NCBI GenBank assembly: GCA_964535385.1
Contig: CAZHSY010000005.1
Location: 263 to 64,262 of the forward strand
Direction of reading: 5' to 3'
DNA from: an uncultured Candidatus Saccharibacteria bacterium
Lineage (GTDB): Bacteria; Patescibacteriota; Saccharimonadia; CAILAD01; GCA-016700035
DNA length: 64,000 nucleotides
In this document: positions 5,575 to 64,000 of the stretch, in pieces
Layout of the letters: every line of letters begins with the position of its first letter
Numbering within the stretch: position 1 is the stretch's first letter
Made by a program: the position numbers and the translations under genes
The notes under the pieces: model-generated
What the model saw: only the letters and a program-made list of their open reading frames with translations
Database searches by the model: none
What the model was told of the DNA's origin: nothing

Positions 5575-5624
5575 ATGTAAACTTTTCTCTGATCTCAGCG
5601 CGACCTACTTCTAGCACGCTGGCC

Positions 5625-47904: not shown

Positions 47905-48581
47905 TGTACAGTCCCAAGCCGATAGCCGAATCCACGCACCGTGTTAAGCAGTGGTTGACCCTTAAATGGGTCGTCGATCTTCTTACGCAGATAGCCCATG
48001 TAGACCTCTACCGTATTCGGCAAAACATCGGCATCATAATCCCAGACATGGGCAATAATGGCGTCCTTTGAGAGTACCCGACGCGAATTACGCAGTAAGT
48101 ATTCGAGCAAGGCATATTCACGACTCGTCAGATCCACAACCTTACCCGCACGACGAACCGTCTTGGTATTCGTATCTAGCTCCAAATCATCCAGCTTGAG
48201 CGTCGTACCAAGGGCTTCGTGCGGGCGGCGCAAGAGTGCCTTGACTCGAGCCAATAATTCTTCAAAGGCAAATGGCTTGATTAAGTAATCATCAGCCCCG
48301 GCATTGAGCCCGGTCACACGATCGCGAATCTGATCCTTAGCAGTCAACATAATAATAGGCGTATGCAATTTAGCTTCACGTACCGCTCGACAAATATCCA
48401 GGCCTTCTTTATCTCCTGGTAAAAGTCGATCAAGAATAATCAGATCATGTTCGCCGGAAGTAGCCTCCATCTCGCCATCTTCAGCGTCATAGACCACATC
48501 AACCGCATAGGACTCCTGCTCAAGACCACGCTTGAGGGCTTGGGCAATCTTATGCTCATCTTCAACAATAAGAATTCTCAT
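47901..48581 (-). CDS. OmpR/PhoB-family response regulator
   Basis: REC domain (ILIVEDE...D51...K) plus winged-helix C-terminus (LTSREYALLEYL...GFGYRL). 4-nt overlap with the kinase gene. Confidence 0.9.
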   Translation of the reverse strand: MRILIVEDEHKIAQALKRGLEQESYAVDVVYDAEDGEMEATSGEHDLIILDRLLPGDKEGLDICRAVREAKLHTPIIMLTAKDQIRDRVTGLNAGADDYLIKPFAFEELLARVKALLRRPHEALGTTLKLDDLELDTNTKTVRRAGKVVDLTSREYALLEYLLRNSRRVLSKDAIIAHVWDYDADVLPNTVEVYMGYLRKKIDDPFKGQPLLNTVRGFGYRLGTVQ

Positions 48582-48694
48582 GCCCCCATTGTAGCCTGAA
48601 AAAGCTGAAAGGAAACTTAGAAAGAGTCCATCTTCTGGGGAATTAGTGCTAACGCGAGCGCAATCGTTATTTATAACGTAACGTATGTGTGTCG

Positions 48695-49987: not shown

Positions 49988-50694
49988 GTCAGCTTACCTC
50001 GTATGAGCTTACCATCCTTAATGAACACTTGCCGGTCGCAACGCCGAGCCAGATCATAGTCGTGTGTCACGATTATTAACGTAATACCCTCGTTCTTATT
50101 GAGCTTAAAGAGCAATTCTTCAATCTTGCTGCCAGTATTGCTATCCAGGTTGCCAGTTGGCTCGTCGGCAAAGATAACATCGGGCTTATTCATGAGTGCT
50201 CGAGCGATAACTACTCGCTGCTTTTGGCCGCCACTGAGATCATTAGCCTTATTCTTAGCTTTATCCTCTAGCCCTACCTGACGCAATACTTCGAGCCCGC
50301 GCTTGTTGCGCTCTCGTCGGCTCTTACCAGCAATCTTCAGCGGCAAAACGATGTTCTCCAAGACACTAGCATTCCCGTTTAAGAAGAACTGCTGAAAGAC
50401 GAAGCCAAACTCTTGGTTGCGCAGTCGATCCAGTTGGCGCTTCTTGAGCTTAGCAGCTGAATCGCTATGGATTAAGACGCTGCCGTCGGTTGGCTTATCG
50501 AGCAGTGCTAAGAGATGCATAAGAGTCGATTTTCCAGAGCCACTCTTCCCAATAACAGCCACGCTCTCGCCAGCCTTAATATCAAGATTAACGTCATGAA
50601 GAGCAGTAAAGGCGTTTTCGCCTTTACCATAGACCTTGTAGAGATTTTGGGTGGTAAGTACCGACTTTGTAGACTGTTTTGGCATTACCCCCAT
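49984..50694 (-). CDS. ABC transporter ATP-binding protein (MacB/LolD-like)
   Basis: Walker A GKSGSGKST. Signature LSGGQKQRVVIARAL. Walker B IIFADEPT. 4-nt overlap with the permease gene. Confidence 0.9.
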   Translation of the reverse strand: MGVMPKQSTKSVLTTQNLYKVYGKGENAFTALHDVNLDIKAGESVAVIGKSGSGKSTLMHLLALLDKPTDGSVLIHSDSAAKLKKRQLDRLRNQEFGFVFQQFFLNGNASVLENIVLPLKIAGKSRRERNKRGLEVLRQVGLEDKAKNKANDLSGGQKQRVVIARALMNKPDVIFADEPTGNLDSNTGSKIEELLFKLNKNEGITLIIVTHDYDLARRCDRQVFIKDGKLIRGKLT

Positions 50695-50709
50695 TGTACG
50701 CGATTCCGC

Positions 50710-51906
50710 CTAGCGAGGCCACGTACCATCATAGTATGCCCAGCCGAGATATTGATTGCTCAAGCCTGTCACGCGATGCTGCCAAACTGGCGAGCGTTGG
50801 CCACTATATCCTTGAGTCGAAATTACATAGCCATTTCCGATAGATATCCCCACATGCCCATCGGCACCAGCATAGAAAACGAAGGCACCAGCTGGTGGAC
50901 TAGCATCGGTATGCATAGCCCCACGCTGCAAGCGATACTGGTAATGAGTGAAGGCTGAAGCGGCCCGACCACGGACACCATAGGCCAGCTCAACAAACGT
51001 CTCACATCGGCCCGACCACCAGGCACCAAGTTGATCACTCCAAGCCGGAGCCGGTGAGCTCCTCTCGGCGCTGACCCAAGCCACCGCTCGAACTTCAGCG
51101 GCCGTTTGACAGGCTGGCGCGATACCCTGCACTGGATGTGTCTTCAAGGTGAGCTCGAGGTTATCGCGACTTAGCTCTGTAATCGGCTGGCCGGACTGAC
51201 AGCGCTGCAATTGCTCGGCCTCGCGGTATTCGAGGGCTTGTTCACCCTGTAAGAGAAAGGCACTCGCACTATAGCTCGCCGAGTGCACCAGCTGACCGCT
51301 TGGTAGTTGTGGCAACTGACGCACGCCTACTTCAGCTCGCCAGACCAAGACGCCATGTTCAAAATCCTGTCGCCGCTCACCCTGCCAATCAAACGCATCA
51401 CCAATTGGCTGGCCCAGGTTCGTTCGATGATCTAACTGACTGTAGTACGACCAGAAAGGCTCAGGAACCACGAAGCTGCTGGCCGGTGTCGCAACTACCG
51501 CCACGGTACCGAGGCTGCCACCGCTGAATACCTGGGTAGAACCAACCTCAGTTTGGTCGGCTTCCGATAGCGGCATGCCGATAGTTAGTGGATCCAGCTC
51601 CTCCACGACACGCCAAATCTCTGGCTGTACAACCACCACTCGGCTGCCGCAACCAGGAGCCATTAGTGTCGTCTCCCGCCCATCATCGCGATACGTCTGG
51701 GTGCAGCCCAATTGGGTGACGGTCGGAGGAGTTGGCTCCCCAAGCTCTCCTCTTGCGCTTAACTCAGCTTGCTTCTGCTCAAAAGCCCGAGCTGCGACCT
51801 GACTCACCACGGCAGGCCGAGCACCGGCCTGCGCAGCTTGAGGAACTAGTAAATAAACTGCCACCACCCCCATAACCTGTACTAGATATCGTAAACGAAT
51901 CTTCAC
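50710..51906 (-). CDS. Secreted LGFP-repeat + NlpC/P60/CHAP-like cell-wall peptidase
   Basis: Sec signal peptide (AQA). LGFP-like repeats (W..Y.....LG.P....Q.FE.G.L.W). C-terminal Cys/His catalytic domain (CETFV...GHVGISIG). Confidence 0.65.
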   Translation of the reverse strand: MKIRLRYLVQVMGVVAVYLLVPQAAQAGARPAVVSQVAARAFEQKQAELSARGELGEPTPPTVTQLGCTQTYRDDGRETTLMAPGCGSRVVVVQPEIWRVVEELDPLTIGMPLSEADQTEVGSTQVFSGGSLGTVAVVATPASSFVVPEPFWSYYSQLDHRTNLGQPIGDAFDWQGERRQDFEHGVLVWRAEVGVRQLPQLPSGQLVHSASYSASAFLLQGEQALEYREAEQLQRCQSGQPITELSRDNLELTLKTHPVQGIAPACQTAAEVRAVAWVSAERSSPAPAWSDQLGAWWSGRCETFVELAYGVRGRAASAFTHYQYRLQRGAMHTDASPPAGAFVFYAGADGHVGISIGNGYVISTQGYSGQRSPVWQHRVTGLSNQYLGWAYYDGTWPR

Positions 51907-52044
51907 TCTCTTCTCTCCTTAGCTGTGACGCCATCGTAAGGAGAGATCTAGATATAGCCAAGCATCAGGATGATGCCTGACGCAGTATCAGCGTGACCTA
52001 GATCACACCTTCACAGAGAAATGGCCTACACGAGATCCACGATT

Positions 52045-52602
52045 TCAGCTTTCGGATACTAGTTGCCCCAGGACTGGGAAAAGTTGGTCATTCAGGGCAG
52101 CTTCAAGTACCACATGGGCTTCGTTGTTATATGGTAGCCGGTAGAGTATTTGTTGGAGGAGCCGCAAATGACTGTCGATCGAATCTCGCTCTACTTGTGA
52201 TAATTGACCTGACACACCCAGTGTAGCTATAAGATCACCAACGTGCTCCAAAGCGTCCAAGCAAGCTCCCTGCCCGTCGTAATCACGCTCGCCCAGCTGA
52301 CTACACAGCACTCTCACGGCGCGCTGGACTTGTTCGAGCTCGCTCAAAGCCCGACGACGATTACGGTTTACTGCGACTAGTTCTTGCGAGCCTCCTGCCT
52401 CGTACCGCTTCTCTTGAATCTGGTACTCATGCACTTCAGCTGGTAGTACTGTCAGAGCTTGAATATCTGACTCACTTACTAATAAATCCTCCAGAGGTGA
52501 CGAAGGCAAACCTGGTTCTTCCGGCCTAGCCAACATCGACTGCAAGTCGTGCTTAAGATCATTATTTGACCTAGATTCTTCAGTAAAGTGAGTTTCTCGC
52601 AT
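52045..52602 (-). CDS. Hypothetical protein, 185 aa
   Basis: Intact ORF, divergent from the sortase gene. No recognisable domain. Confidence 0.4.
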   Translation of the reverse strand: MRETHFTEESRSNNDLKHDLQSMLARPEEPGLPSSPLEDLLVSESDIQALTVLPAEVHEYQIQEKRYEAGGSQELVAVNRNRRRALSELEQVQRAVRVLCSQLGERDYDGQGACLDALEHVGDLIATLGVSGQLSQVERDSIDSHLRLLQQILYRLPYNNEAHVVLEAALNDQLFPVLGQLVSES

Positions 52603-52649
52603 AACGCTAGTATAGCGGATATGCTTATGCTCCGGTTACAATAGAAAGC

Positions 52650-53288
52650 ATGATCCGTCGTAGACCCCGCACTGCGGTGCAAGCCCACCCCCATGAGACT
52701 CCCTACTACGCTCCTGGCAAAACCAAAGCCAAAAGACGTCGAGTGGTGCTATTAATCTTGGCAATAGCCTGCATCCTAGCCGGATTGTATCTGGGTTACC
52801 TTTTGCTCAGCCCAAAGATCGCTACTCTAGTGCCGATCAAAACCAAGATTGACCTTAATACAACCGACGACTCGACCGATCATCGTAATCGTATCCAGAT
52901 ACAGAAGATCAATCTTGAAGTGCCGTTCCTGGAAGGCGACGCTAGCTCATTAGATCACGGCGCCTGGCACCGTTACCCCGAGCGAGGCAATCCCGAAGAT
53001 GGCGGCAACTTCATCCTCTCAGCTCACCGCTTTAATATTGGTACCACACCAGTAGAAACAAAAGAACGCTCACCTTTCTATAATGTTGATAAACTAAAAG
53101 TCGGCGACACTATGCGGGTTTTTTATAATGACCACTGGTATGACTATGTAATCACCAAGACCTACAGCGTTAAGCCAAATGCGATTGAGATCGAAGCCCC
53201 GTCCGAAGATGCTCACCTCACTCTCTACAGTTGTTCGCTGGGAGGTAGCAGTGACGGCCGAACCGTCATTGAAGCCAAGCTTAAATAA
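52650..53288 (+). CDS. Sortase (class E/F-like transpeptidase) with N-terminal membrane anchor
   Basis: Catalytic His (LSAHRF), TLxTC-type motif LTLYSCS, and conserved Arg near the C-terminus. Confidence 0.78.
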   Translation: MIRRRPRTAVQAHPHETPYYAPGKTKAKRRRVVLLILAIACILAGLYLGYLLLSPKIATLVPIKTKIDLNTTDDSTDHRNRIQIQKINLEVPFLEGDASSLDHGAWHRYPERGNPEDGGNFILSAHRFNIGTTPVETKERSPFYNVDKLKVGDTMRVFYNDHWYDYVITKTYSVKPNAIEIEAPSEDAHLTLYSCSLGGSSDGRTVIEAKLK

Positions 53289-53302
53289 AAACTTGCCATA
53301 TA

Positions 53303-53332
53303 AAAACCAGGCTCCGATAGCCTGGTTTTTAT
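53303..53332. terminator. Bidirectional rho-independent terminator between the convergent sortase and ABC-2 genes
   Basis: AAAAACCAGGCT-ccgat-AGCCTGGTTTTT. Confidence 0.65.
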
Positions 53333-53348
53333 ATGGAACACAGGAGTG

Positions 53349-54143
53349 CTAAGCTCGACGCTTGTAAGCCCAGACAGCTAACGGCACGAAGATGACCAAG
53401 AGACCAAGAGACCAAGTGGCTGCCTTCCACGGTGCACCATAGGTATTCACCCCAAGAGCAAATTCACGCGACGCATTGACCACGAACGTAACCGGCTGAT
53501 TGCGCACAAATGCCTGCAACCAATCTGGTAGAGTTTGAGTCGGTACGAAAGCTGAGCTCGCGAACGTCAGCGGAAATATAGCTAAGAAACTAGCCAGCTG
53601 AGCCGTCTCCGCATCACGCACACTCAAGCCAATGAAAGCAAAGAGCCATGACAAGGCATAGCCAAACAACGCCGAAATACCGATCATACCAAGTGCACCA
53701 GTTAAGCCATTCTGAAAGCGGAAGCCGAGCAAGGCGCCGACAGAAATCATAATAAGCATGACGGCCAAGTTACGAACCAGGTCGGATAGAGTTCGGCCAG
53801 CGATAACAGCAATCCGGCTCATCGGCAGAGATCGATACCGATCAACAATCCCTTTGCCCATGTCCTCGGCTAGACCGATACCGGTCTGCACACCCCCAAA
53901 CATGACGGTCTGAATGAGGATGCCGGGAAGTAAGAAGTTAATATACTTTCCGCCTGGAATAGCAGCGATGGCTCCAGCTCCGATGGCCCCACCAAAGACA
54001 TAGTTAAACAGTACCAAAAACATAATTGGTTGAACTGAGCTGAAGAACAACAGCTGTGGCAGACGAACATAGCGCAAGAGATTACGCTTCGCGATAATCG
54101 TCGTGTCGCGGAAAGCTTTAGCAAAACGCTTCAACGGATTCAT
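53349..54143 (-). CDS. ABC-2 type transporter permease (6 TM)
   Basis: 264 aa. ABC-2 topology. 4-nt overlap with the ATPase gene. Confidence 0.8.
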   Translation of the reverse strand: MNPLKRFAKAFRDTTIIAKRNLLRYVRLPQLLFFSSVQPIMFLVLFNYVFGGAIGAGAIAAIPGGKYINFLLPGILIQTVMFGGVQTGIGLAEDMGKGIVDRYRSLPMSRIAVIAGRTLSDLVRNLAVMLIMISVGALLGFRFQNGLTGALGMIGISALFGYALSWLFAFIGLSVRDAETAQLASFLAIFPLTFASSAFVPTQTLPDWLQAFVRNQPVTFVVNASREFALGVNTYGAPWKAATWSLGLLVIFVPLAVWAYKRRA

Positions 54144-55141
54144 GAGCGTCCGCCTTTCTTACCCGAGGTCGGCTTCTCAGTGTCCTCAGTCCGTTCTCCA
54201 GTCAGGGCGAGGAAGACATCATCGAGTGACGGACGGTGGAGTGAGATGCCCGTCATATCCACCTTGATGTTGCCTAAGGCCTGCACGATTACAAGCAAAT
54301 CCTTGGTACCACGAGCTACTGGCACAATAATTCGCTTGCCTTCATCTTCGACCTTCGGAGCCTTAGCGGCGATTGCCTTGACCGCTTCGAGCACTTGAGC
54401 TTCTCGCCCACCCTGAGCAAACTCAAGCTCAACGACATCACCACCCAAGCGAGCCTTGAGCTCGTCAGATGTACCTTCGGCAATAATCTTGCCTTTATTC
54501 AATACTGCAATGCGATCAGCCAGCTCATCGGCTTCTTCGAGATATTGAGTAGTCAAGACAATACTACGACCTTCACTCACCAGGTCGCGAATGATTTGCC
54601 ACAGCTCCAAGCGAGTCCGCGGATCAAGACCAGTGGTTGGCTCATCGAGCAAAATGACCTGAGCTTCACCGACCAAACTGGCACCAAGGTCGAGGCGGCG
54701 GCGCATCCCGCCAGAGTATGTCCGTACCGGACGATTGGCGGCATCAGTAAGGCTCAAGCGCTCGAGAATAGCGTTGGTCCGACGCTTAGCCTCAGCCGTA
54801 GTCAAGCCATACAGCCGACCAGTAATGTAGATATTTTCATAGCCAGTTAAGAACTCATCGACAGCTGCATACTGACCAGCTAAACCAATCAGACTCCGAA
54901 CTCCTTCAGGATCCTCGGCAACATCAACACCTAACACTTTTAGACTACCCTTGTCGGGTGCGAGAAGTGTCGCCAGAGCTCGTACGAGGGTTGTCTTACC
55001 AGCCCCATTCGGACCAAGTAATCCGAAAATTGTGCCGGCCTTTGCTTCGAGTGTCACCCCATCAAGTGCCTTGACGCTACCGAAGTGCTTCCGTACACCA
55101 CGAGCGCTAAAAGCTAATTGATCTGATATTTTCATTGACAT
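54140..55141 (-). CDS. ABC transporter ATP-binding protein (DrrA-like)
   Basis: Start placed at MSMKIS, preceded by RBS AAGGAGA (the track ORF has a 19-aa extension). Walker A GPNGAGKTT, signature YSGGMRRRL, and a C-terminal DrrA-type extension. Confidence 0.88.
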   Translation of the reverse strand: MSMKISDQLAFSARGVRKHFGSVKALDGVTLEAKAGTIFGLLGPNGAGKTTLVRALATLLAPDKGSLKVLGVDVAEDPEGVRSLIGLAGQYAAVDEFLTGYENIYITGRLYGLTTAEAKRRTNAILERLSLTDAANRPVRTYSGGMRRRLDLGASLVGEAQVILLDEPTTGLDPRTRLELWQIIRDLVSEGRSIVLTTQYLEEADELADRIAVLNKGKIIAEGTSDELKARLGGDVVELEFAQGGREAQVLEAVKAIAAKAPKVEDEGKRIIVPVARGTKDLLVIVQALGNIKVDMTGISLHRPSLDDVFLALTGERTEDTEKPTSGKKGGRS

Positions 55142-55346
55142 AACTATTCTCCTTATAATTTCTGTATCTACGAGATTCTTCCAGGGATTACCCGACAAAT
55201 CTGCTTGCTTTCAGATCTATAAACTCTATATATATGTAGCCCCGTATGAGAGCCCGCAAGCGCGCAGTCTTCAAGGCGCCCGTAAAAATCTATGTAGACG
55301 TATTGGCTACTCCTGCAGCTTAATATCCGGCTCTGCCCAAGCCAAT

Positions 55347-55892
55347 TTAGCCGGCCTCCGAGTAAGGCTTGCCTGTCTCCGAAGCATCCGAGCCGTCGGC
55401 GATATCGCACAAGTCTTTGAGAGATTTTTCAACGACTTCTCGGGCTGCGTCAAACTGTTGATCACTACCATGGCGAATAATCTGCTTCATGGTTTTCATA
55501 AACTGCATACCGATCATGCGGAGCTGCATGATGCGTTCTGGCGCACGATTACCACGCTCCCAAGGCATGTCCTGTGGATCTTGGCTTTTAGCCTTCTGCT
55601 TGCCAGCCTCTGTTAGGGAGTAGATTTTCTTACCCTTATCCTCTTCGGCTTCGATAAGCCCCTGATCAACCAACATTTGGAGAGTTGGGTAAATCGAACC
55701 AGGGCTTGGGCGCCAAACGCCCTGACTGCGGTCTTCTAAGTAACGGATAATCTCATACCCGTGCATTGGTTTGCTTTGTAGTACATCCAAGATCATAGCT
55801 TGAATATCGCCACGACCGGCCTTCCAGTCGTTACGCCAATTGTCATGTATATCTCGCCAATCTTGGCCGTGATGATAGCCTCTGTGTTCCAT
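55347..55892 (-). CDS. PadR-family transcriptional regulator
   Basis: ILDVLQSKPMHGYEIIRYLEDRS...SPGSIYPTLQMLVDQGLIEA is a PadR winged helix. It heads the padR-ABC operon. Confidence 0.85.
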   Translation of the reverse strand: MEHRGYHHGQDWRDIHDNWRNDWKAGRGDIQAMILDVLQSKPMHGYEIIRYLEDRSQGVWRPSPGSIYPTLQMLVDQGLIEAEEDKGKKIYSLTEAGKQKAKSQDPQDMPWERGNRAPERIMQLRMIGMQFMKTMKQIIRHGSDQQFDAAREVVEKSLKDLCDIADGSDASETGKPYSEAG

Positions 55893-55920
55893 AGAGACTC
55901 CTTTCGATTACTTTTATTCG

Positions 55921-55968
55921 ATAATACGATATATCGTGATATATCATAGTTCACGATATATCGTATTG
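55921..55968. promoter_or_regulatory. Candidate PadR operator: two copies of the perfect palindrome ACGATATATCGT flanking TGATATATCA, overlapping a GATAAT -10-like box upstream of padR
   Basis: The palindromes are seen directly at 55926-55937 and 55953-55964. PadR regulators bind inverted repeats and autoregulate. Confidence 0.5.
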
Positions 55969-56072
55969 TCAAGACTTTTCTTAAATCAATTTCAACCAAG
56001 AAATCCATTGTAATATTACTGTTTTTATTGTATAGTTACGCGATGTCACACCGAGTAAAGGAAGTTCTGGCC

Positions 56073-56780
56073 ATGCGCGCTGTGCGCGGATTTTTGATTG
56101 TGGCTGCACTTGGTCTGCTGGCCGTAATCGGCAAACAACACTATGCGCAGTCAGTGACGGCCGAAGACACCAAGCCCTGCGGTCTCAACTGCTGGCATAC
56201 CGACATAACTACCACCTACGAACAGGGTGGCACTCGCGCTACCGCCGATGATATGGGGCAGAGCAATCGCCCATCAGCCTGGTATCGAGATTGGTCAAAG
56301 CACCTGTGTGGGGCTGACAAGGCCGGCAATCGTACTGTCGTGCAGGCTGGCTGTGACAATCTCTTCTACTTCGCACTACCCTGCAGTGACTACGATAGCC
56401 ACGGTCCCATCAAGAGCCACATTCAAGCATCACCTTGGGCAAAGGATAACCTCGCGACTAATCAGTCTTGGTTTAAGAACAAATGGATTGAGATCCGCTA
56501 CCAAGGCAAAACGGTCTATGCCCAGTGGGAAGACGTTGGTCCAATGGGCCAAGCCGGTCATGAGATTGAAGACTGTAAGTATGTCTTTGGTTCCGACCGC
56601 CCCAAGCAAGAACGTGACCAGCACGCCTACAGTGCTCTGGATATATCGCCGGCTGCCTTCAAGCTTCTTACCGATGACGACCTTGAAATTGGCATGATTC
56701 AGACCCAGTGGCGCTTCGTCGAAGCTCCACCGGACGGTATTTGGTCGGCCAATATCACCACAAGTGGTCCTGATTGGTAG
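56073..56780 (+). CDS. Secreted protein with possible RlpA/expansin-like DPBB fold (putative cell-wall binding/lytic)
   Basis: Start at MRAVRGFLIVAALGLLAVIG (signal peptide) with RBS AAGGAAG. The C-terminal pattern VYAQWEDVGPMG...ALDISPAAFKLL resembles V..DRGP....ID.S..AF..L of DPBB proteins. A weak call. Confidence 0.4.
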   Translation: MRAVRGFLIVAALGLLAVIGKQHYAQSVTAEDTKPCGLNCWHTDITTTYEQGGTRATADDMGQSNRPSAWYRDWSKHLCGADKAGNRTVVQAGCDNLFYFALPCSDYDSHGPIKSHIQASPWAKDNLATNQSWFKNKWIEIRYQGKTVYAQWEDVGPMGQAGHEIEDCKYVFGSDRPKQERDQHAYSALDISPAAFKLLTDDDLEIGMIQTQWRFVEAPPDGIWSANITTSGPDW

Positions 56781-56943
56781 TCTCTCCAAGAAACTGCCTC
56801 CACTTGACGGAGCTCCGAGATCATTCTCGGAGCTCTTTTATACTTATATCCTCTTGAGAATCCCTATATATTGACTTTTTATAGTACTTATGTTAATATA
56901 AACAATCCTTTCCAGACACCCAGATACAGGAGATGCACCTGAC

Positions 56944-58203
56944 ATGTTCAAGCTTCCGCGCAATCTGCTGGCGGCACTGGCGGTCCTCGTGACCGTCATC
57001 GCCGCAGCCTGTTCGCCCGCTCCCAGCGGGGGCGGCACAACCGTTCCGACCAAGCCAGCTGTCAACCTGATCGCCAACCCCTCCCTGGAGGCTGGTACGG
57101 CGACCGGTGTTGAGCACTGGACCAGTGCTGGCTACGGTTCGCTGAACGCTGCCTTCTCGGTGTCTTCGGATGCCCAACAAGGCACGCGAGCAGCTCGGGT
57201 CGACGTGACCAACTACGAGTCCGGCGATGCCAAGTGGATCTTCGATCCCGTCAACGTCAGCCCGAACACGACCTACATCTTCTCCGACTACTACAAGTCG
57301 TCGGCGAAGTCACAGGTGCTGGCTGTCACCACTGACTTGGCCGGAACCGCCACCTACCAGTGGCTGTCCGACCTCGATCTGACCTCAACCTGGAAGCAGG
57401 TCAAGCAGTCCGTCACCGTACCGGCTAACGCCGTCACTCTGACGGTCTACCACCTGCTCTTTTCCAACGGCGCCCTGACCATCGACAATGCGTCGCTGGT
57501 ACAGGCACCCAAGGGCCAGGCCATGGTTTCGATCGAGTTCGACGATGGCTGGCGCAGCGCCTACACGCTGGGCCTGCCCATCGTCCGCAGCTTCGGCTGG
57601 GTTCCAACCCAGTACGTCATCACTGACCCGGTCAAGAACCCGGGTAACTACGACGGCGAGTACATGACCGCCAGTCAGGTAAAGGACTGGGTGGCCCAGG
57701 GCGGTCAGATCGGTAACCACACCGTGGATCACGCCGATCTCACCACCCTCACCGCCACCCAGACCCAGGCCGAACTGGCTGACAGTCAGGCCTATCTGAA
57801 GTCCCTGCTCGGTACCGCCCCGCGCCTGTTCGCGACGCCCTATTGCGCCACAAACGACGCGGTCACAGCACTCGCCAAGCAGTACTTCATCGGCCAGCGC
57901 AACTGCGCCACGCCGTTCAACACCCTGGGCGACTGGAACCCCTACAATCTGGGGTCCTTCCAGGTCCTGGCCACCACCACGGTGGCTGAGATCCAGGCAG
58001 CTCTGGCTCAGGCCAAGGCCAATGGCTCATGGCTGACGCTGACCTTCCACGAAGTGGGTGCACCAGTCGATCCGACCGATGCCGCCTACGCCGTGACGGC
58101 AGCTCAGCTGACCGCCATGCTGCAGGTTGTGAAGGATTCGGGACTTCCCGTCTATTCCAGCCAGCAGGCGTTCGACAAGACGAACGCGCTTGCCAATAGC
58201 TAA
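56944..58203 (+). CDS. Polysaccharide deacetylase (NodB homology domain) lipoprotein with N-terminal carbohydrate-binding-like domain; atypically high GC
   Basis: Lipobox VIAAAC. NodB motifs SIEFDDGW, H..DH and LTFHEV. Local GC is 63-75% against about 50% for the genome, with G/C-ending codons. Confidence 0.8.
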   Translation: MFKLPRNLLAALAVLVTVIAAACSPAPSGGGTTVPTKPAVNLIANPSLEAGTATGVEHWTSAGYGSLNAAFSVSSDAQQGTRAARVDVTNYESGDAKWIFDPVNVSPNTTYIFSDYYKSSAKSQVLAVTTDLAGTATYQWLSDLDLTSTWKQVKQSVTVPANAVTLTVYHLLFSNGALTIDNASLVQAPKGQAMVSIEFDDGWRSAYTLGLPIVRSFGWVPTQYVITDPVKNPGNYDGEYMTASQVKDWVAQGGQIGNHTVDHADLTTLTATQTQAELADSQAYLKSLLGTAPRLFATPYCATNDAVTALAKQYFIGQRNCATPFNTLGDWNPYNLGSFQVLATTTVAEIQAALAQAKANGSWLTLTFHEVGAPVDPTDAAYAVTAAQLTAMLQVVKDSGLPVYSSQQAFDKTNALANS

Positions 58204-58229
58204 AGTATCGGTTCCGGTAGTTTAGCGCC

Positions 58230-58262
58230 AAACGGTCACCCTTCGGGGTGGCCGTTTTCCAT
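58230..58262 (+). terminator. Rho-independent terminator after the deacetylase gene
   Basis: AACGGTCACCC-ttcg-GGGTGGCCGTT followed by a T-rich run. Confidence 0.6.
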
Positions 58263-58284
58263 TTCTAAGTAATGCTTTGCTTGG

Positions 58285-59382
58285 TTATAGTAAAAACTGA
58301 GCTTTCTGATCGGCTATAATCACACCGACCAAGACTGCAATGAGTCCGTACGCCAGACTCACATCCGGCAGGAACACCTGAATAATAGCTACGAGGATAC
58401 TGGCCACTAAGATCGTCGGGAAGACCATTCCGCCCCGATAGTGACTGGCCTTTGACCAGCCAATGGCAGCCATTTTGACCACCAGCATCCAGGCGAGGCC
58501 AGCAAGACCTAATGCACTCGCTTGCTGGAGCATCGGGTTGATTGCCTCATTGCCAGTGAACTCCACCAGTGGGCCACCCAGCCAATAGATAATAGTCAGG
58601 CCGAGAGCAGCCACGATAGCCTTCGCCCACCACGGATGACGAGCCACTACACCCTGCGCATACCTCGATGCATCGTGTAAGAATTTAATGCCAAAGGTAA
58701 CCCCGTATCCAGCCACCAATAAAAATACCAGTGCTATTGCTGTATGAATATTCAGCACCCAGCCAACATCTGGAATATCGATCAAGGGACGTGACGGCAC
58801 CAGTGAAAGCACAGCCACTGTTGTCAGTGAAGCCAACACAGCAAAGGCCAGTAACTTCGCATTCAGCTTAAGATTCTTTTCTTTCAGCACTAGAAGTAGA
58901 CCGATCAGGCCAGCCGCGAAGGAGTGAAAGAAAGCCGCGAAGAGCGCGACGAATCCAACCATGGCCAGGAGATTACTGGCTGGCTGGTTTCTCTTAAAGA
59001 CCCGATCACCAACCAAGCCGCCGATTATTAATGAAGCTGGCACCAGGATGGCCTCAGGGCCAAGTGAAGCACCTGCTAGGAGCGAAAGAAAGCCTATAAA
59101 TAAGACCTGGATATAGGCTTTCCCCGTAAACTGCGGCGTCTCTCCTAAGCCCTTAGACTCCCTTGCTTCTGACTTTGGGTCGAGAATATGCTGGGCGCCA
59201 AAAAATAATAGCGAAAGCACTAAGCACAGCGGCAACACCACCCACCGCAAGCTATCGGTCTGAAAGACTTCCGTCCAGATTACACTGGTCGATACACGCA
59301 CCGCCCACTCGAATACCGAATACGTCAGCGCCACACCAACGCTTACCACCATCGTCGCAAAAATAGCCTTTATGAGCTTCAT
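58285..59382 (-). CDS. ClC-family chloride channel / H+-Cl- antiporter (short form)
   Basis: ClC selectivity motifs AGASLGPEAILV (GxEGP) and YRGGMVFPTI (GxFxP). I place the start at MKLIKAIF. The first 91 aa of the track ORF overlap the upstream gene and a TATAAT box, so I treat them as non-coding. Confidence 0.65.
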   Translation of the reverse strand: MKLIKAIFATMVVSVGVALTYSVFEWAVRVSTSVIWTEVFQTDSLRWVVLPLCLVLSLLFFGAQHILDPKSEARESKGLGETPQFTGKAYIQVLFIGFLSLLAGASLGPEAILVPASLIIGGLVGDRVFKRNQPASNLLAMVGFVALFAAFFHSFAAGLIGLLLVLKEKNLKLNAKLLAFAVLASLTTVAVLSLVPSRPLIDIPDVGWVLNIHTAIALVFLLVAGYGVTFGIKFLHDASRYAQGVVARHPWWAKAIVAALGLTIIYWLGGPLVEFTGNEAINPMLQQASALGLAGLAWMLVVKMAAIGWSKASHYRGGMVFPTILVASILVAIIQVFLPDVSLAYGLIAVLVGVIIADQKAQFLL

Positions 59383-59467
59383 CTCTATTACTGCCATTAT
59401 ACCCTGCTTCGCTCTCAGAATGTAAGCAGAACATACCATTGAATCAAGCCTGCTTAAAACCGCTTGT

Positions 59468-59520
59468 CTACACATGTAAAAAGGTGCTTGCAGCCACCTC
59501 ATAGGTAAGCTGCAAGCACC
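59468..59520 (-). terminator. Minus-strand rho-independent terminator after the 59625..60590 gene
   Basis: Minus reading AAGGTGCTTGCAGC-ttacctatgaggtg-GCTGCAAGCACCTTTTT. Confidence 0.5.
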
Positions 59521-59624
59521 TTGCTTAACGACGCCGGAACTCGGCCATTTGTTGACGGACGCGCTGAATCGACGTCTCTCTCTCATGGTATTCATGCGGT
59601 ACCAGTGTCTGGCGATAACACTGC

Positions 59625-60590
59625 TCAGCAATTGCCAAGCATGATCGCATGACAATCCTCGTCACTCCTAACAGGCCGTGGCTCTAGCACCGTGCAGGCC
59701 GGTGGTTGGTCGCTCCGAATCGGCGGATCAAGTGTCGCCGCCACTGGAATCACGACTCCACGCATCATTTGCATGGTGCCCCTCTTGAGCGGCTGCATAT
59801 GAACCTTTCGCCAATGCAAGTCGTGCGACGCACTGGGTGCAATGGCTAGAAGATGGCCACCCTGAGCCTGCAGCCAAGCCACTTCAAGCTTGGTTAGCCG
59901 GTTACTCAGACTCACCAAGCCATCTGGAAATGCCCTATCCCGTGTCGTCGGCGTAGTAGGAAAACTAAACACCACATTGGCAAAGAGCTGGATCGCCTCA
60001 ACTGCCGACATCTCCGGCAGGCCAGTCGCCGCTAGTTTGGTGGTGGTAATACCGCGACCAATCACCAACGTACTGCGTTCAGAGAATTCTTCTGGTGGCA
60101 ACCATGGCTCACTCTCCAAGCGACAAGCGCCCAACACCAATGCAATATCAATGACATTACTGTGATTGGTAACCAACGTGTAGTTACTCCCCCTGCAAGC
60201 CATCTCGGCAGTGATCAGGGCCAGCATATGGCCCAGCGGTCGCAGAGCTTCCGGGATAATCGGGAAGGCCGAATGGGTGGCTGACCCAATCATAGCCAAA
60301 TCCTGATTGTTAATTGGCGTAGTCGGCATCAGAACCGTCTCGAGCTGATGATAGGGTTTCTGCGCCGAATAAGCCATCAACTTGAGCAGTCCACCCGTAT
60401 GACGATCGCCCAGCTCGGTCAAAAGTGAGTAAACCTCACTAGAGTTGTATTGTCTAAGCTGCTCAATCAAGGCAGCTCGACGTGCTTCGTATTCGACACG
60501 ATCCATCTCGCCTCCAACGTTCAAATAAAAGGTACAATTATCCGATTGCAGTATGTCAGGTTTTTGGTGAGAATACGATGACTTAGCCAT
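59625..60590 (-). CDS. Hypothetical protein, possible acyltransferase (NHxxxxD motif)
   Basis: 321 aa. VTNHSNVIDIALVL fits LPLAT motif I (NH.S..D). The other motifs are weak. Confidence 0.35.
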   Translation of the reverse strand: MAKSSYSHQKPDILQSDNCTFYLNVGGEMDRVEYEARRAALIEQLRQYNSSEVYSLLTELGDRHTGGLLKLMAYSAQKPYHQLETVLMPTTPINNQDLAMIGSATHSAFPIIPEALRPLGHMLALITAEMACRGSNYTLVTNHSNVIDIALVLGACRLESEPWLPPEEFSERSTLVIGRGITTTKLAATGLPEMSAVEAIQLFANVVFSFPTTPTTRDRAFPDGLVSLSNRLTKLEVAWLQAQGGHLLAIAPSASHDLHWRKVHMQPLKRGTMQMMRGVVIPVAATLDPPIRSDQPPACTVLEPRPVRSDEDCHAIMLGNC

Positions 60591-60615
60591 TGCCGGCCTC
60601 GCAGGCCAGACGACC

Positions 60616-62280
60616 TTATTTATCTAAACCGTCGATCGACACGACTTCCCCGCCCAAGGCTTGGCCGAAGTAGCTATCGTGCGAGATGTAGAGAACCGCC
60701 CCATCGTAGCGCTTGAGGGCCATCTCCAGTTCTTCGATCGAGGGCAAATCAAGGTGGTTGGTTGGCTCATCCAAAATTAATAAATTCGGCCGATGTGCAA
60801 ACAATGCGATCAATTGAATCCGTGCCTTCTGCCCTCCCGAAAGCTGAGCTACCGGTACACTACCGTCATGTCGATCAAATAGATACTCGGCCAGCGTCTG
60901 GAAGATCGCTTCATCATTAACTGGACGATTAGCGGCTCGATAGATGCTGGCAATGGCTTCAGCCAGCGTCTTATTAAGTAAATCAGACCGAATCTCCTGC
61001 TCATAGCGGCCGATTACCAGCCCCTGACTACAGTCGATAAAGCCATCGTAAATCGTGCAGTTCAACTGCTCACCAGCAGCCGTAGCGCACAGAGCATCAA
61101 CGAACGTCGTCTTACCCGCACCATTGCGACCAATAATATGTATGCGCTCACCGGCTCGCACTTCGAACTTCACATCGCGAAACAACGGCTCGCCATAACC
61201 GAGGGCTAGATTATCAACTCGAACAAGTTGTGAGGCATGACCAACGGCGCCGTGCTTGGCATCCTTGAGTGTAATATTGCGAGCCTTATACTTCTCGTAT
61301 TGCTCAGACTGCCCGCGTTTCAGTTCTTGGGTCGAAGCTTGATCGATCCAAATTGTCGGTTTCTTCGTCCGTTCTTCCAGCGCCTCAACCTCCTTCTCAA
61401 GTCGACGTACCAGTGGAATAAATGGGTTTGGCGACTGTTTCGAACGATCCTTCTTAATCCGTGCTTGACGCAGAGCTTCACGCCGATTCTCCAGCGTCTT
61501 ACTGTCCACTTCATACTGATGCATAGCCGAAACGTTAGAGCTGGCGTTTTGCTTGAGATAGGCAGCGTAATCACCAGAGAAAGAATATAGCTGATGATCC
61601 TTCAGCTCGATGATACGGTCAACTGCCGCTAAGACGTCTCGATCGTGGGAGATCACCAGCACACCGGAGCTAGTGTCTTGAAGCCAATCTACGAAATTAG
61701 CCTTGGCCACATAGTCCATATGATTGGTTGGCTCGTCTAGGAGCAAGAGATCAGCATTTGAATACTCGATTTGGACGAGCTGCGCGAAGCGTTTCTGACC
61801 ACCTGACAGTGCTTGAAATGGCCCATGGATCTGGGCTTTGCTCAGCTGGTAGGCCTTGAGTGACTCACTAATCTGATCACGGACGTGATAATAGCCATAG
61901 GTCGCGTATTTTTCTAGGGCGTCAGAATACAGTTGAATTTTCTCCATATCCTCACCGTCTGGTCCAGCCTCGATGATGGCCGTCAACTCACGGTAATCTC
62001 TTAAGCCATCCAACACATAATCAAACACGCTCGTCTCCGCCTTGGCTCGCTGTTCTTGGTCGGTCGTCAGAATCATCAAGCCTCTCGCTACATCGACCGT
62101 ACCAAGAAAATCCTTATCTTCGCCTAGAATTATTCGCGCTAGTGTCGTTTTGCCTACACCATTACGGCCAACAAAGCCAACTTTCTCTCCATCTTGAATC
62201 TTAAGCTCACTATCTTGAATGAGTAGTTTTGCGCCAGCTTGTTTTTCTTCTATATATGCGGAGCACAGCATTCCAATCAA
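60616..62280 (-). CDS. ABC-F family ATPase (tandem ABC domains, no TM)
   Basis: 554 aa. Two Walker A sites (GRNGVGKTT, GRNGAGKTT) and two signatures (LSGGQKRFAQL, LSGGQKARIQL) with an inter-domain linker. Confidence 0.9.
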   Translation of the reverse strand: MIGMLCSAYIEEKQAGAKLLIQDSELKIQDGEKVGFVGRNGVGKTTLARIILGEDKDFLGTVDVARGLMILTTDQEQRAKAETSVFDYVLDGLRDYRELTAIIEAGPDGEDMEKIQLYSDALEKYATYGYYHVRDQISESLKAYQLSKAQIHGPFQALSGGQKRFAQLVQIEYSNADLLLLDEPTNHMDYVAKANFVDWLQDTSSGVLVISHDRDVLAAVDRIIELKDHQLYSFSGDYAAYLKQNASSNVSAMHQYEVDSKTLENRREALRQARIKKDRSKQSPNPFIPLVRRLEKEVEALEERTKKPTIWIDQASTQELKRGQSEQYEKYKARNITLKDAKHGAVGHASQLVRVDNLALGYGEPLFRDVKFEVRAGERIHIIGRNGAGKTTFVDALCATAAGEQLNCTIYDGFIDCSQGLVIGRYEQEIRSDLLNKTLAEAIASIYRAANRPVNDEAIFQTLAEYLFDRHDGSVPVAQLSGGQKARIQLIALFAHRPNLLILDEPTNHLDLPSIEELEMALKRYDGAVLYISHDSYFGQALGGEVVSIDGLDK

Positions 62281-62389
62281 AAGCCACCTTGAGTAATGAT
62301 CCCTTAGTCTACCGGTTAGGACTCAGAATAGCAAAAAGCAAGCCTTGCCAACCCGTGCTAAACTTAGGGCAGCAAAGGGAAATCCACAA

Positions 62390-63946
62390 ATGACCAAGCA
62401 GACTACGAAAACCAGCAACCCAACACTTGCACTGCTTCTTGCGATGGCAATGTTTGTATTGGTTGTCGATACTTCTATCATGAACGTGTCAATCTCGTCA
62501 GTCGTCCAATCCCTCAATACTACTGTCAGTAGCGTACAGTCAGTTATCGCCCTGGAGGCTCTCATATCGGCGGCTTTTATTCTCATAAGTAGTAAGCTCG
62601 GCGATATAATTGGTCGCAAACGAGCCTACACACTCGGCCTCATAGCCTATGGTATGGGAGCGCTCTCAATGGCTCTGGCCCATAACCTTCAAGCCATCAT
62701 TATTTTTTGGGCTATTATTGGCGGCCTCGGCGCCTCACTCCTACTCCCTGCTATGCAGTCTCTAATCCATGGGAACTTCGAAGGTGCTGCGCAGAAAAAA
62801 ACCTACGCGCTAGTAGGGGCTGCCGCTGCGATTGCAGCTGCGGTAGGCCCACTTATCGGTGGGTTCCTAACGACCTATCTGTCATACCGATTTGCTTTCC
62901 TGCTTGAATTTCTGATCATTGTCATTGTGCTCCTGGGCAACAAGCTCATTCGCGACGTACCCTATACTGGCTCACGCAAGATTGATTATGTGGGTACTAT
63001 CTTATCAATACTAGGTATGGGCGGCGTAGTACTCGGCATTCTGGTCTGGCAGGAGGGTGGCGATTTCGTCGGCCTGCTTATCACTCTCGGTATTATCATG
63101 CTCGGATCACTGGCCTGGTGGCTTAAACGACAAGATGCGGCCGGCAAAACTACCCTGATAGATCCCAAGCTATTCAAATTTCCCCACTTTCGCCTCGGAA
63201 TCTCTGGACAAATGATGCAGAACATTGTACTCGGTGGCTCCATGATTGCCTTACCCATTTTCCTGCAAATTTCGCTTGAATATAATGCCATGCAAACCGG
63301 CCTGACCATTGCGCCACTCTCGCTATCCATGTTCGCCGTGGCGTTGATCGCGGGGCGTAAATTTGCCCACGTTCGTACAAGCAAGATCATCAAGTACGGC
63401 TTCTTACTCTCAACCCTCGGCTTCCTCATCTTATTGCCACTGATCCCCTCGGCTGAGTCAGGCTGGTGGCTAGTTATCCCGCTCTTAATCATTGGCTCCG
63501 GCCTCGGCCTCTTAGTCTCGCAGCTCAATAACTATACCCTCGCACCCATAAGCGAGAAGCGTGTCAGCGAGGCTGCTGGGATAAATTCTGCAGCTGGCTC
63601 CTTCGGACTGTCCTTTGGTCTGGCTGTAGCTGGTGGCGTACTTCTAGCCGCTTTGTCGATCAGCTTTACCAACCTCACCAATCAAAGCTCAGCCATCCCA
63701 AGTACTCAAAAGCAGCAAATTGCCACCAAGTTGGAGGCCAGTGCTGAGGTGGTCAGCAATGGTGATTTAGAACAGGCCATCAGCAGCCAACCGGCTGAGG
63801 TTCGGGAAGCTATTCTAGCCATCAATACCGATGCCACCCATCTTGCTCTTCAAATTGCGCTGCTGGTGCCCTTAGTTGCGTCCCTTATTGGCACAATTAA
63901 CGCTTTTCACATGGAGACTTTACCGGAGATTAAGCCATCTAGCTAA
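62390..63946 (+). CDS. MFS transporter, DHA2 (14-TM drug:H+ antiporter, EmrB/QacA-like)
   Basis: Start at MTKQTTK (the track ORF has a 15-aa extension). MFS motif A (GDIIGRKRAY) and 14 hydrophobic segments. Confidence 0.85.
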   Translation: MTKQTTKTSNPTLALLLAMAMFVLVVDTSIMNVSISSVVQSLNTTVSSVQSVIALEALISAAFILISSKLGDIIGRKRAYTLGLIAYGMGALSMALAHNLQAIIIFWAIIGGLGASLLLPAMQSLIHGNFEGAAQKKTYALVGAAAAIAAAVGPLIGGFLTTYLSYRFAFLLEFLIIVIVLLGNKLIRDVPYTGSRKIDYVGTILSILGMGGVVLGILVWQEGGDFVGLLITLGIIMLGSLAWWLKRQDAAGKTTLIDPKLFKFPHFRLGISGQMMQNIVLGGSMIALPIFLQISLEYNAMQTGLTIAPLSLSMFAVALIAGRKFAHVRTSKIIKYGFLLSTLGFLILLPLIPSAESGWWLVIPLLIIGSGLGLLVSQLNNYTLAPISEKRVSEAAGINSAAGSFGLSFGLAVAGGVLLAALSISFTNLTNQSSAIPSTQKQQIATKLEASAEVVSNGDLEQAISSQPAEVREAILAINTDATHLALQIALLVPLVASLIGTINAFHMETLPEIKPSS

Positions 63947-64000
63947 GCCTTGATGGCCCTTAGCCGATGAAGGAATTCCGACCACACAGCCATCGTGCCC

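Follow-up and report, generated by a model that had tools for sequence, protein, structure and literature searches.

The locus

The DNA analysed here, which we call the window, is a 64,000-nucleotide (nt) stretch of an uncultured Candidatus Saccharibacteria genome (assembly GCA_964535385.1, contig CAZHSY010000005.1, positions 263 to 64,262), and the gene of interest is a plus-strand open reading frame (ORF) running from 56944 (ATG) to 58203 (TAA) in the ORF list, which encodes a 419-amino-acid (aa) polysaccharide deacetylase lipoprotein (hereafter the deacetylase) and is much richer in G and C than the genes around it. An earlier reading of the same DNA from its letters alone (the sequence-only reading) had taken this composition as a sign of possible acquisition from an actinobacterial donor. 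The UvrB protein of the window is 83% identical to named Candidatus Saccharibacteria proteins and 73% identical to Patescibacteria proteins, and since its best named matches are to Candidatus Saccharibacteria the host is a Saccharibacterium.

The GC content of the deacetylase ORF is 0.625, with values of 0.59, 0.49 and 0.80 at first, second and third codon positions (GC1, GC2 and GC3), against means of 0.513 (standard deviation, sd, 0.035) for GC and 0.528 (sd 0.068) for GC3 among the 51 window ORFs of at least 150 aa. This places its GC3 at z ~4.0, the runner-up ORF reaching 0.68. Measured against 192 other 1260-nt segments (mean GC 0.502, sd 0.027, maximum 0.563) the gene lies 4.6 sd above the mean, and its dinucleotide signature is also deviant (delta* 0.145 vs 0.066, sd 0.023; z ~3.4), with an equally deviant value in one of the 192 segments. 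GC3 is ~0.80 evenly across the signal peptide, carbohydrate-binding module (CBM) and catalytic domain, and the intergenic 100-mers on either side have a GC of no more than 0.34 and 0.44; because the fall is sharp on both sides, the GC island consists of the deacetylase ORF alone. The bias is plain in individual codons (AAG 15/15, ATC 11/11, CAC 5/5, TTC 12/13, CTG 27/38), whilst GC1, at 0.59, equals the host mean. An independent Logan assembly is 100% identical to the window over 46944-64000, both deacetylase junctions included. Two minus-strand ORFs antisense to this region (57385-57732 and 57917-58231) were considered as genes and rejected as by-products of the high GC3, their cross-locus matches mirroring sense-strand conservation.

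The features of the locus are listed below, L010 being the contig of a sister genome.

56028 to 56780, plus strand: upstream neighbour, encoding an unknown-family protein that is secreted or in the membrane (ORF list), with an orthologue in L010
56871 to 56899, plus strand: promoter from a consensus scan, with -35 box TTGACT, a 17-nt spacer and an extended -10 element TG-TTAATAT (TAATAT) (TATGTTAATAT)
56900 to 56943, plus strand: 5' untranslated region (5'UTR), with a pyrimidine-rich block (ATCCnTTCC), a Shine-Dalgarno sequence AGGAG at 56928-56932 and G(C/T)ACCT before the ATG, from an alignment of eight cassettes
56944 to 57012, plus strand: lipoprotein signal peptide, lipobox AAAC with predicted lipidated Cys23, PROSITE-type regular expression matching MFKLPRNLLAALAVLVTVIAAAC
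57064 to 57450, plus strand: CBM_4_9-type beta-sandwich, aa 41-169 (PF02018)
57499 to 58203, plus strand: CE4/NodB catalytic domain, aa 186-419 (PF01522, alignment A1 and AlphaFold2 model)
58231 to 58258, plus strand: intrinsic terminator with a 12-bp GC-rich stem, UUCG loop and T-tract (AACGGTCACCCTTCGGGGTGGCCGTTTT)
58285 to 59439, minus strand: downstream neighbour in convergent orientation, encoding an unknown-family membrane protein (384 aa in the L016 gene call)

Domain architecture and likely function of the deacetylase

Residues 1-23 of the deacetylase fit the lipobox pattern {DERK}(6)-[LIVMFWSTAG](2)-[LIVMFYSTAGCQ]-[AGS]-C, as do the orthologue and all members of the subclade described below. 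A Pro/Thr/Gly linker lies N-terminal to the CBM, which is recognized by Pfam as CBM_4_9 (PF02018) at residues 41-169 (E 5.9e-8, 33.6 bits against a cut-off of 25.9) and for which the AlphaFold2 (AF2) model gives beta-strands at residues 83-181 with a predicted local distance difference test score (pLDDT) of 57-86, its N-terminal part being poorly modelled. Polysacc_deac_1 (PF01522) matches residues 189-314 (E 8.9e-23, 81 bits against a cut-off of 23.1), and the AF2 model has pLDDT >90 over residues 190-419. Searched with Foldseek against the PDB, the model matches many CE4 structures (probability 1.00, target-normalised TM-score 0.66-0.74, E 1e-9 to 1e-10, 15-27% identity), spanning CE4 peptidoglycan, chitin and acetylxylan deacetylases.

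The CE4 metal triad is present as D201, H259 and H263 (HTVDH), the two histidines being invariant and D201 at least 90% conserved in alignment A1, and so are the catalytic residues D200 (in FDDG) and H369 (in FHEV), the latter invariant in the same alignment. The arginine of motif 3, RxPY, is lacking and the sequence reads A297-T298-P299-Y300, with FATP invariant across the clade; an invariant R319 (RNC) might stand in for it. C301 and C321 of the catalytic domain are likewise invariant in alignment A1. None of the NCBIfam equivalogs comes near its cut-off (HfsH 45 bits vs 400, PgdA 28-30 vs 400-800, NodB 30 vs 240, PgaB 24 vs 322), so the substrate is not readable from homology, and the deacetylase is, as judged by these profiles, a new subfamily member of CE4 outside every characterised subfamily tested. 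Compared with the L010 orthologue it has a nonsynonymous divergence (dN) of 0.165 and a synonymous divergence (dS) of 0.83, indicating purifying selection.

Several elements of the sequence-only reading thus hold: the GC and GC3 anomaly of 56944-58203 is real, its codons are strongly G/C-ending, the product does combine a lipobox leading to Cys23 with a carbohydrate-binding N-domain and a NodB deacetylase domain (both domains above the Pfam gathering score), and the epibiont lifestyle that it raised as a possibility agrees with the Saccharibacteria-type host indicated by UvrB.

By analogy with CE4 enzymes, D201, H259 and H263 would hold the metal, and D200 and H369 would serve as base and acid, respectively. 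The protein is predicted to be exported and lipid-anchored at Cys23 on the outward side of the membrane, with a flexible linker, the CBM4/9 and the metal-dependent CE4 domain following in that order; the CBM would bind the enzyme to a glycan, from which the catalytic domain would strip acetyl groups. The substrate is most likely N-acetylglucosamine (GlcNAc) of a wall or surface glycan such as peptidoglycan, belonging to the cell itself or to the bacterium that carries it. We found no paper that addresses this deacetylase in Saccharibacteria; horizontal gene transfer in Saccharibacteria in general has been described, the deacetylase gene not being treated (McLean et al., 2020). When the whole two-domain model was searched with Foldseek the top match was 8qpg_TA, the turret protein of Haloferax tailed virus 1 (E 1e-15, TM-score 0.44, 15% identity, root-mean-square deviation 17.6), a model comparison which suggests that an archaeal virus structural protein has a similar pair of beta-sandwich and CE4-like domains.

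The sister genome and homologue searches

L010, a 94-kb contig from another sample, carries a 77%-identical orthologue between the same neighbours. The syntenic locus was compared in this one sister genome, where the flanking genes are 72-94% identical to those of the window, so that the deacetylase has diverged much as its neighbours have, and where its GC3 is 0.75 in a background of 0.48 GC. The L010 flanking genes are saturated at synonymous sites; as Nei-Gojobori (NG86) dS was for this reason undefined in most of them, it was replaced by a saturation null and by the proportion of differences at four-fold degenerate (4-fold) sites relative to saturation (p/psat). Between window and L010 the latter is 0.66 for the deacetylase and 0.80-1.00 for 10 flanking genes, i.e. 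lower than in all 10, and this reduced synonymous divergence fits constraint on synonymous sites.

Apart from the L010 orthologue, no homologue above ~57% identity was found in two word-indexed searches of 5.8 billion sequences or by HMMER in 1.84 billion representative proteins, the exhaustive HMMER search giving nothing above ~50% identity. A scan of metagenome contigs recovered six loci, and IMG/VR gave a single irrelevant match at 24%. The taxonomy of the contigs bearing homologues was assessed by UvrB, marker domains (WhiB, DUF3499) and tetranucleotide signatures, from which we infer that all of the low-GC contigs are Saccharibacteria. Members of the wider family are plasmid-borne in Actinobacteria, as a polysaccharide deacetylase family protein of an Arthrobacter conjugative plasmid (H1; NZ_CP110116.1 9925-10416) matches the CBM over residues 34-188 at 34% identity; this distant match was all that the plasmid search gave.

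A shared promoter-gene-terminator cassette

The promoter of the deacetylase is ~85% conserved at the sister locus, despite an insertion sequence (IS) directly upstream there, and is homologous to promoters in L037, L023, L019, L036, L025 and L031; within the window the motif TATGTTA[ATC]TAT occurs once, at this promoter. The Shine-Dalgarno sequence lies 11 nt upstream of the ATG. No structure was predicted for the 5'UTR (z -0.09), and a search of it against Rfam found no family, only a spurious miRNA match far under the gathering score. The terminator hairpin, predicted at -21 kcal/mol (z -4.8), is conserved in L010. Since the upstream neighbour has its own terminator (56809-56836, terminator scan) and the downstream neighbour is convergent, the deacetylase forms a separate, self-contained transcription unit. 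Pfam finds no domain in the upstream neighbour, and the downstream neighbour is 72% identical to its L010 orthologue.

The GC-rich copies borne by low-GC contigs encode proteins 41-80% identical to one another and lie at different loci among unrelated neighbours, and still their non-coding flanks are homologous, from about -75 to about +65, ending directly after the T-tract. On the 5' side they share the -35 box, the extended -10 element TATGTTAxTAT, a pyrimidine-rich 5'UTR and AAGGAAG followed by G(C/T)ACCT before the ATG, and on the 3' side a CGGCCACCC-loop-GGGTGGCCG terminator, the strict hairpin motif of which occurs in the 489 kb searched solely just downstream of GC-rich deacetylase genes. 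These flanks are AT-rich, with GC of 0.34-0.42. Neither the native-GC relatives, which have promoters and terminators of their own in place of the cassette promoter, 5'UTR and terminator, nor the actinobacterial copy, which is operonic with GC-rich flanks, carry the cassette promoter and terminator. Homologous AT-rich flanks despite unrelated neighbours indicate that the copies descend from one promoter-ORF-terminator cassette with regulatory parts of the low-GC-host type.

Two short stretches shared between cassettes were also noted. In cassettes otherwise ~60% identical, a 38-nt run in the Thr/Ser/Pro linker is the same in L019 (gene nt 120-157) as in L037 (gene nt 123-160), and the terminator stretches of L023 (10851-10876) and L036 (2213-2238) are identical over 26 nt; both may be footprints of exchange between cassettes. 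Save for the 38-nt run, a mosaicism scan gave no clear conversion tracts.

Phylogeny and composition across the CE4 clade

The closest relatives of the deacetylase are P0002, from the sister Saccharibacterium, and then P0250 together with single-domain lipoproteins on contigs of 47-52% GC. Catalytic-domain trees join the window pair to P0250 at 81.5% bootstrap, and this trio to the ~270-aa single-domain lipoproteins at 90.5%. The resulting GC-rich subclade, of which one of ~10 members is actinobacterial, falls within a larger clade, that of two-domain proteins encoded on Saccharibacteria-type contigs. A protein from a contig of 75% GC (L033) was the outgroup of the clade at 98.5% in the initial neighbour-joining tree, a placement poorly supported (29%) in the expanded tree.

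All nine lipobox-bearing members for which DNA was available have GC3 of 0.72-0.90, and eight of the nine lie in flanks of 0.47-0.52 GC, as follows.

Window: gene GC3 0.80, flank GC 0.50
L010: gene GC3 0.75, flank GC 0.48
L036: gene GC3 0.87, flank GC 0.52
L025: gene GC3 0.72, flank GC 0.47
L031: gene GC3 0.83, flank GC 0.47
L023: gene GC3 0.90, flank GC 0.50
L019: gene GC3 0.90, flank GC 0.52
L037: gene GC3 0.89, flank GC 0.49
L017 (actinobacterial): gene GC3 0.82, flank GC 0.67

Five relatives without a lipobox, in low-GC flanks, have a native GC3 of 0.39-0.56. The lipobox is found in every member of the GC-rich subclade and in none of P0003, P0024, P0026, P0319 and P0328, and the high GC3 of P0312 (L037) was predicted from its lipobox alone and then confirmed (0.89 in a 0.49 flank). 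On a more distant Saccharibacteria-type contig (L032, 585-7284) a native-GC, non-lipoprotein CBM+CE4 gene is followed by two ~760-aa surface proteins and then by a sortase 65-68% identical to that of the window, a gene order that links deacetylase with sortase loci in this group.

Age and character of the GC bias

Deep pairs of cassettes are saturated at 4-fold sites (p/psat 0.91-1.02), yet their GC3 stays at 0.8-0.9. On a rough two-state estimate, a gene starting at GC3 0.95 would have decayed to ~0.63-0.68 by the time its flanks saturated, as compared with the 0.75-0.80 observed. The divergence between the window and L023 catalytic domains (52%) is, moreover, about what would be expected from UvrB (82%) and the window/L010 rate ratio.

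Amino-acid usage was summarized as the share of arginine in lysine plus arginine, R/(K+R). In the catalytic domains this is 0.31 for the cassettes, with Lys exceeding Arg in all nine members, 0.40 for native-GC relatives, and 0.57 and 0.95 for high-GC copies; for the deacetylase of the window it is 0.32, against backgrounds of 0.51 in the window and 0.83 in the actinobacterial contig. At 4-fold sites, C/(C+G) ranges from 0.55 to 0.65 over all eight cassettes, like the host backgrounds at 0.56-0.57; for P0030, the actinobacterial member, it is 0.41, and for the background of P0030 0.49. With amino-acid usage and the preference for C over G both host-like, the GC enrichment is confined to synonymous sites and resembles host usage minus the A/T-ending codons. 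Under passive amelioration, in the Lawrence-Ochman model, a donor signal is lost first at synonymous sites and last in amino-acid usage; here the synonymous signal is kept whilst amino-acid usage is host-like, the opposite order.

P0030 is an outlier of its own actinobacterial contig (GC z -3.4, GC1 z -2.8, R/(K+R) 0.56 vs 0.83, p 0.012), and that it is a low-GC, Lys-rich outlier there points to transfer out of the cassette lineage and not into it. Its gene overlaps the stop of a DUF3048 gene, which itself follows a gene for a 708-aa fusion of a polysaccharide deacetylase with a chitin-synthase-like glycosyltransferase of family 2 (GT2) (L017 6739-10801). This gene order resembles a poly-GlcNAc synthesis operon, and the context of P0030 hints at a GlcNAc-polymer substrate. 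The contig that carries P0030 also encodes, ~6.4 kb away from it (L017 2504-3607), a homologue of an unknown-family protein whose gene lies two genes downstream of the deacetylase in the window (59625-60590, minus strand); the two are 28% identical over ~300 aa.

Explanations for the GC bias

The explanation that we favour, at slightly better than even confidence, is that the deacetylase belongs to a resident and non-recent cassette lineage whose GC excess is synonymous-only, has been kept past synonymous saturation and sits between AT-rich flanks of host type. The GC3 is apparently maintained actively, and a force on synonymous sites would keep cassette GC3 at 0.72-0.90, the candidates being selection on the mRNA or translation of a very strongly expressed gene, or GC-biased gene conversion (gBGC) confined to the cassette. 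More tentatively, and with doubts outweighing confidence, we propose that a gene-specific, synonymous-only process holds Saccharibacteria CE4 cassettes at GC3 0.7-0.9 in genomes of ~50% GC and that there has been at least one export from epibiont to actinobacterial host. gBGC might be restricted in this way if the cassette were the sole DNA homologous between loci or genomes exchanging DNA, and would then explain both the sharp borders and the reduced synonymous divergence; alternatively, the process could be selection for GC-rich mRNA or DNA tied to life on high-GC hosts.

Several observations weigh against the resident-lineage explanation and its mechanism. The overall synonymous codon choice of the deacetylase fits the 67% GC actinobacterial contig (L017) better than the host (log-likelihood -401 vs -474.5), its GC1/GC2/GC3 profile nearly equals that of the actinobacterial copy (0.56/0.48/0.82), and the K and R counts per protein are small. 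The trees are neighbour-joining trees of the catalytic domain from simple distances with 200 bootstraps, and in the initial one the window pair stayed on a long branch without resolution (29%), its position being resolved once P0250, from the exhaustive search, was added. The subclade includes a nested actinobacterial member and the outgroup comes from a contig of 75% GC, so that inter-phylum transfer has happened and an ancient foreign origin is possible. As to taxonomy, the assignment of L019, L025, L031 and L036 rests solely on tetranucleotide correlation with the window (r 0.66-0.86 vs 0.1-0.4 for actinobacterial contigs), the flank of L037 is too short for this test, and the link of L023 to the Saccharibacteria UvrB is indirect. 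The L023 cassette also adjoins four more GC3-rich genes, resembling an ordinary foreign island; these (10977-14462) have GC3 of 0.67, 0.86, 0.73 and 0.71 in a background of 0.33-0.57, one being BtpA-like and three without a Pfam match, and they lack the cassette promoter and terminator motifs. Finally, any mechanism of gene-specific GC maintenance is hypothetical, reported bacterial gBGC effects are small (PMC4450053), and translational selection is unsupported in the genes for glyceraldehyde-3-phosphate dehydrogenase (GAPDH), a substrate-binding protein and pilin-like proteins.

Among the alternatives, a fairly recent capture from a high-GC actinobacterial host, with the GC3 as an unameliorated donor signature, would account for a strong anomaly that ends sharply at the ORF boundaries and for codon usage nearer the actinobacterial contig than the host; the family is common to Actinobacteria (P0018 of Dactylosporangium, P0030 on a contig with WhiB and DUF3499, the Arthrobacter conjugative plasmid), and an rve-family IS adjoins the L010 copy. 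We nevertheless regard it as very improbable, since the gene is found at this locus in a sister genome too, among synonymously saturated flanking genes, has no homologue above ~57% identity beyond that orthologue among 5.8 and 1.84 billion sequences, shows host-like Lys>Arg and 4-fold C>G usage, and shares with Saccharibacteria-type copies an AT-rich promoter and 5'UTR that are missing from the actinobacterial one, P0030 being itself an outlier where it lies. The actinobacterial donor of the sequence-only reading is not supported, given the same-locus orthologue, the host-like amino acids, the shared AT-rich flanks and the outlier status of the actinobacterial copy, and both outcomes which that reading had named as refuting it were observed: the sister genome carries the gene (77% identity, flanks 72-94%), and the nearest homologues lie on Saccharibacteria-type contigs, the same-subclade genes having similarly high GC. 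Repeated import of the whole cassette from an unsampled high-GC lineage or mobile element, each copy a separate recent arrival, would need no further force and would fit copies at different loci with unrelated neighbours, a GC3 spread of 0.72-0.90 as if residence times differed, the likeness of such deviant promoter-gene-terminator units to phage morons, and the identical 38-nt L019/L037 run and 26-nt L023/L036 terminator stretch. Weighed against this are the lack of any reservoir in the protein or contig searches and of a relevant viral match, flanks that at 0.34-0.42 GC are unlike a high-GC genome, Lys>Arg usage, and a window/L023 divergence that we infer to be close to the UvrB-based expectation, and we hold repeated import to be distinctly unlikely. 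The chance that assembly or binning wrongly joined a piece of actinobacterial DNA to a Saccharibacteria contig is negligible: the independent assembly is identical across both junctions, on which ground a chimeric assembly was rejected, the orthologue recurs in other samples between the same neighbours, and the island amounts to a single ORF behind a promoter of native type.

In another alternative, a single ancient transfer from a high-GC, possibly actinobacterial, donor to an ancestor of this Saccharibacteria group would have founded the lineage, the promoter and terminator would have been recruited later and the GC-rich codons kept by constraint. The compositional evidence is the same as for recent capture, and to it are added the high-GC outgroup L033 (98.5% in the initial tree), the co-occurrence on one branch of lipobox, post-His insertion, special flanks and high GC3, as if that branch had a history of its own, and other moderately GC3-rich genes in these genomes (cmk at 0.68; the L023 island). 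Past saturation, however, the same force would still be required, and it could equally have made the bias in situ; amino-acid usage bears no donor trace, and the sole sampled actinobacterial member looks derived and not ancestral. We judge an ancient transfer unlikely. Ordinary translational selection would instead make the cassette one of the most highly expressed genes, with G/C-ending codons optimal. A near-consensus extended -10 promoter, a good Shine-Dalgarno sequence and a very strong terminator in all cassettes agree with this, as do the preference for NNC in two-fold boxes and for C at 4-fold sites, a tRNA-Leu(CAG) in the window alongside CTG usage of 71%, and the reduced synonymous divergence. 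It is opposed by the want of any gradient in GAPDH, the substrate-binding protein and other window genes, from which the deacetylase stands as a discontinuous outlier, by GC3 of 0.36-0.49 in pilin-like and sortase-substrate genes at sister loci, and by AAG, CAG and GAG at 0.8-1.0, which is not what the U34 tRNAs of small genomes favour; the effective number of codons (Nc) is about that predicted by GC3 alone, and Wright's Nc did not discriminate between the hypotheses. On balance this, too, seems quite improbable.

Returning to the resident cassette lineage, a deviant GC3 is routinely read as recent horizontal transfer, and here that shortcut gives the wrong history; the signal is synonymous-only, older than synonymous saturation and paired with a host-type promoter and terminator. 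The case cautions against inferring host-to-epibiont gene flow from composition alone in Patescibacteria. If maintenance is real, the cassette is a tractable system for non-mutational, non-translational control of bacterial gene composition; if the gene-specific process is true, it is an unusually clean bacterial case of persistent single-gene GC enrichment; and if the gene was exported to an actinobacterial host, the direction is opposite to that usually assumed.

Genomic neighbourhood and other features of the window

Envelope-related genes lie near the deacetylase. They encode a hydrolase that combines LGFP repeats with NlpC/P60, a sortase, an ABC-2 exporter accompanied by a PadR regulator, a membrane protein and a secreted protein of unknown family; domain scans of the neighbourhood found neither a prophage context nor a glycoside-hydrolase partner. 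Its lipid anchor, its CBM, its presumably strong expression and its conservation and diversification across Saccharibacteria, together with the sortase and cell-wall hydrolase genes close by, make the deacetylase a good candidate for a factor of the envelope or of the host interface, and its role could be evasion of lysozyme or autolysins, remodelling of the host wall, or scavenging of GlcNAc and acetate.

LGFP repeats are typical of actinobacterial cell-wall proteins, and the gene for the LGFP and NlpC/P60 protein (50710-51906, minus strand) has a high GC1 of 0.67; its counterpart in L010 is a 1.2-kb gap (5453-6684) without a called gene. The segment from the sortase to the ABC-F gene is variable (window 53349-55892 vs L010 7933-8053), with an ABC-2 permease, an ATPase and the PadR regulator in the window and none of these in L010. 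In L010 an rve-family transposase (8881-9855) lies immediately upstream of the deacetylase promoter and an additional MFS gene downstream. The one candidate seen in the window for a part in lipoprotein processing is a 490-aa protein encoded at 21675-23147 (minus strand), which matches LNT_N, the apolipoprotein N-acyltransferase N-terminal domain (E 2e-12).

A second compositional outlier of the window is cmk (cytidylate kinase; 36730-37401, plus strand, inside a run of minus-strand genes), with GC 0.60 and GC3 0.68, the sole other window gene whose codon usage leans to that of the deacetylase (log-likelihood ratio +0.016, the rest <= -0.16); it could be foreign or under the same bias. At the other extreme, a type I restriction-modification module (1000-4807, minus strand) contains a RhuM-family gene (2193-3239) between hsdS (1000-2196, Methylase_S) and hsdM (3236-4807), and hsdS is a low-GC outlier. 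The sequence-only reading had used hsdS for comparison as a gene of 37% GC; its low GC is borne out, but the value is 0.40, with GC3 at 0.36.

Comparison with known systems

The deacetylase has the same fold as the CE4 enzymes Streptococcus pneumoniae PgdA (2c1g), Bacillus cereus Bc1960 (4l1g), Bacillus subtilis PdaC (6h8l) and Streptococcus pyogenes PplD (6dq3), the last being its best sequence match among solved structures (E 8e-6), and it resembles them in the Asp-His-His metal triad, the catalytic Asp and His, and a predicted extracytoplasmic location. It differs from them in sequence (15-27% identity), in having ATPY for RxPY clade-wide, in the added N-terminal CBM4/9 and in its lipid anchor. 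The modular CE4 acetylxylan esterases (Clostridium thermocellum Xyn11A-CE4, 2c71; termite-gut Xyl-CE4, 7ax7; Streptomyces lividans AxeA, 2cc0) also combine CE4 with CBMs and give comparable structural scores, but these are soluble secreted or cellulosomal enzymes acting on plant biomass, whereas the deacetylase is predicted to be a membrane lipoprotein of an ultra-small epibiont.

As a genetic unit, the cassette recalls ameliorating horizontally acquired islands, which may likewise be a single gene with deviant GC, GC3 and dinucleotides and sharp borders; in contrast to these, the deviation here is synonymous-only, extends past saturation and is common to the orthologue and the homologous cassettes. 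Phage morons are autonomous promoter-gene-terminator units of deviant composition, and the cassette has the same promoter-ORF-terminator architecture, deviant composition and variety of loci, but neither a prophage context nor a relevant IMG/VR match. A further counterpart is P0030, an actinobacterial lipoprotein CE4 that falls in the subclade of the deacetylase, shares its lipobox and post-His insertion and is 53% identical in the catalytic domain. Unlike the deacetylase, it is a single-domain protein without a CBM, has no cassette promoter or terminator, and is encoded in an operon with the DUF3048 gene and the deacetylase-GT2 fusion, the latter resembling the Streptomyces poly-GlcNAc synthase MatB.

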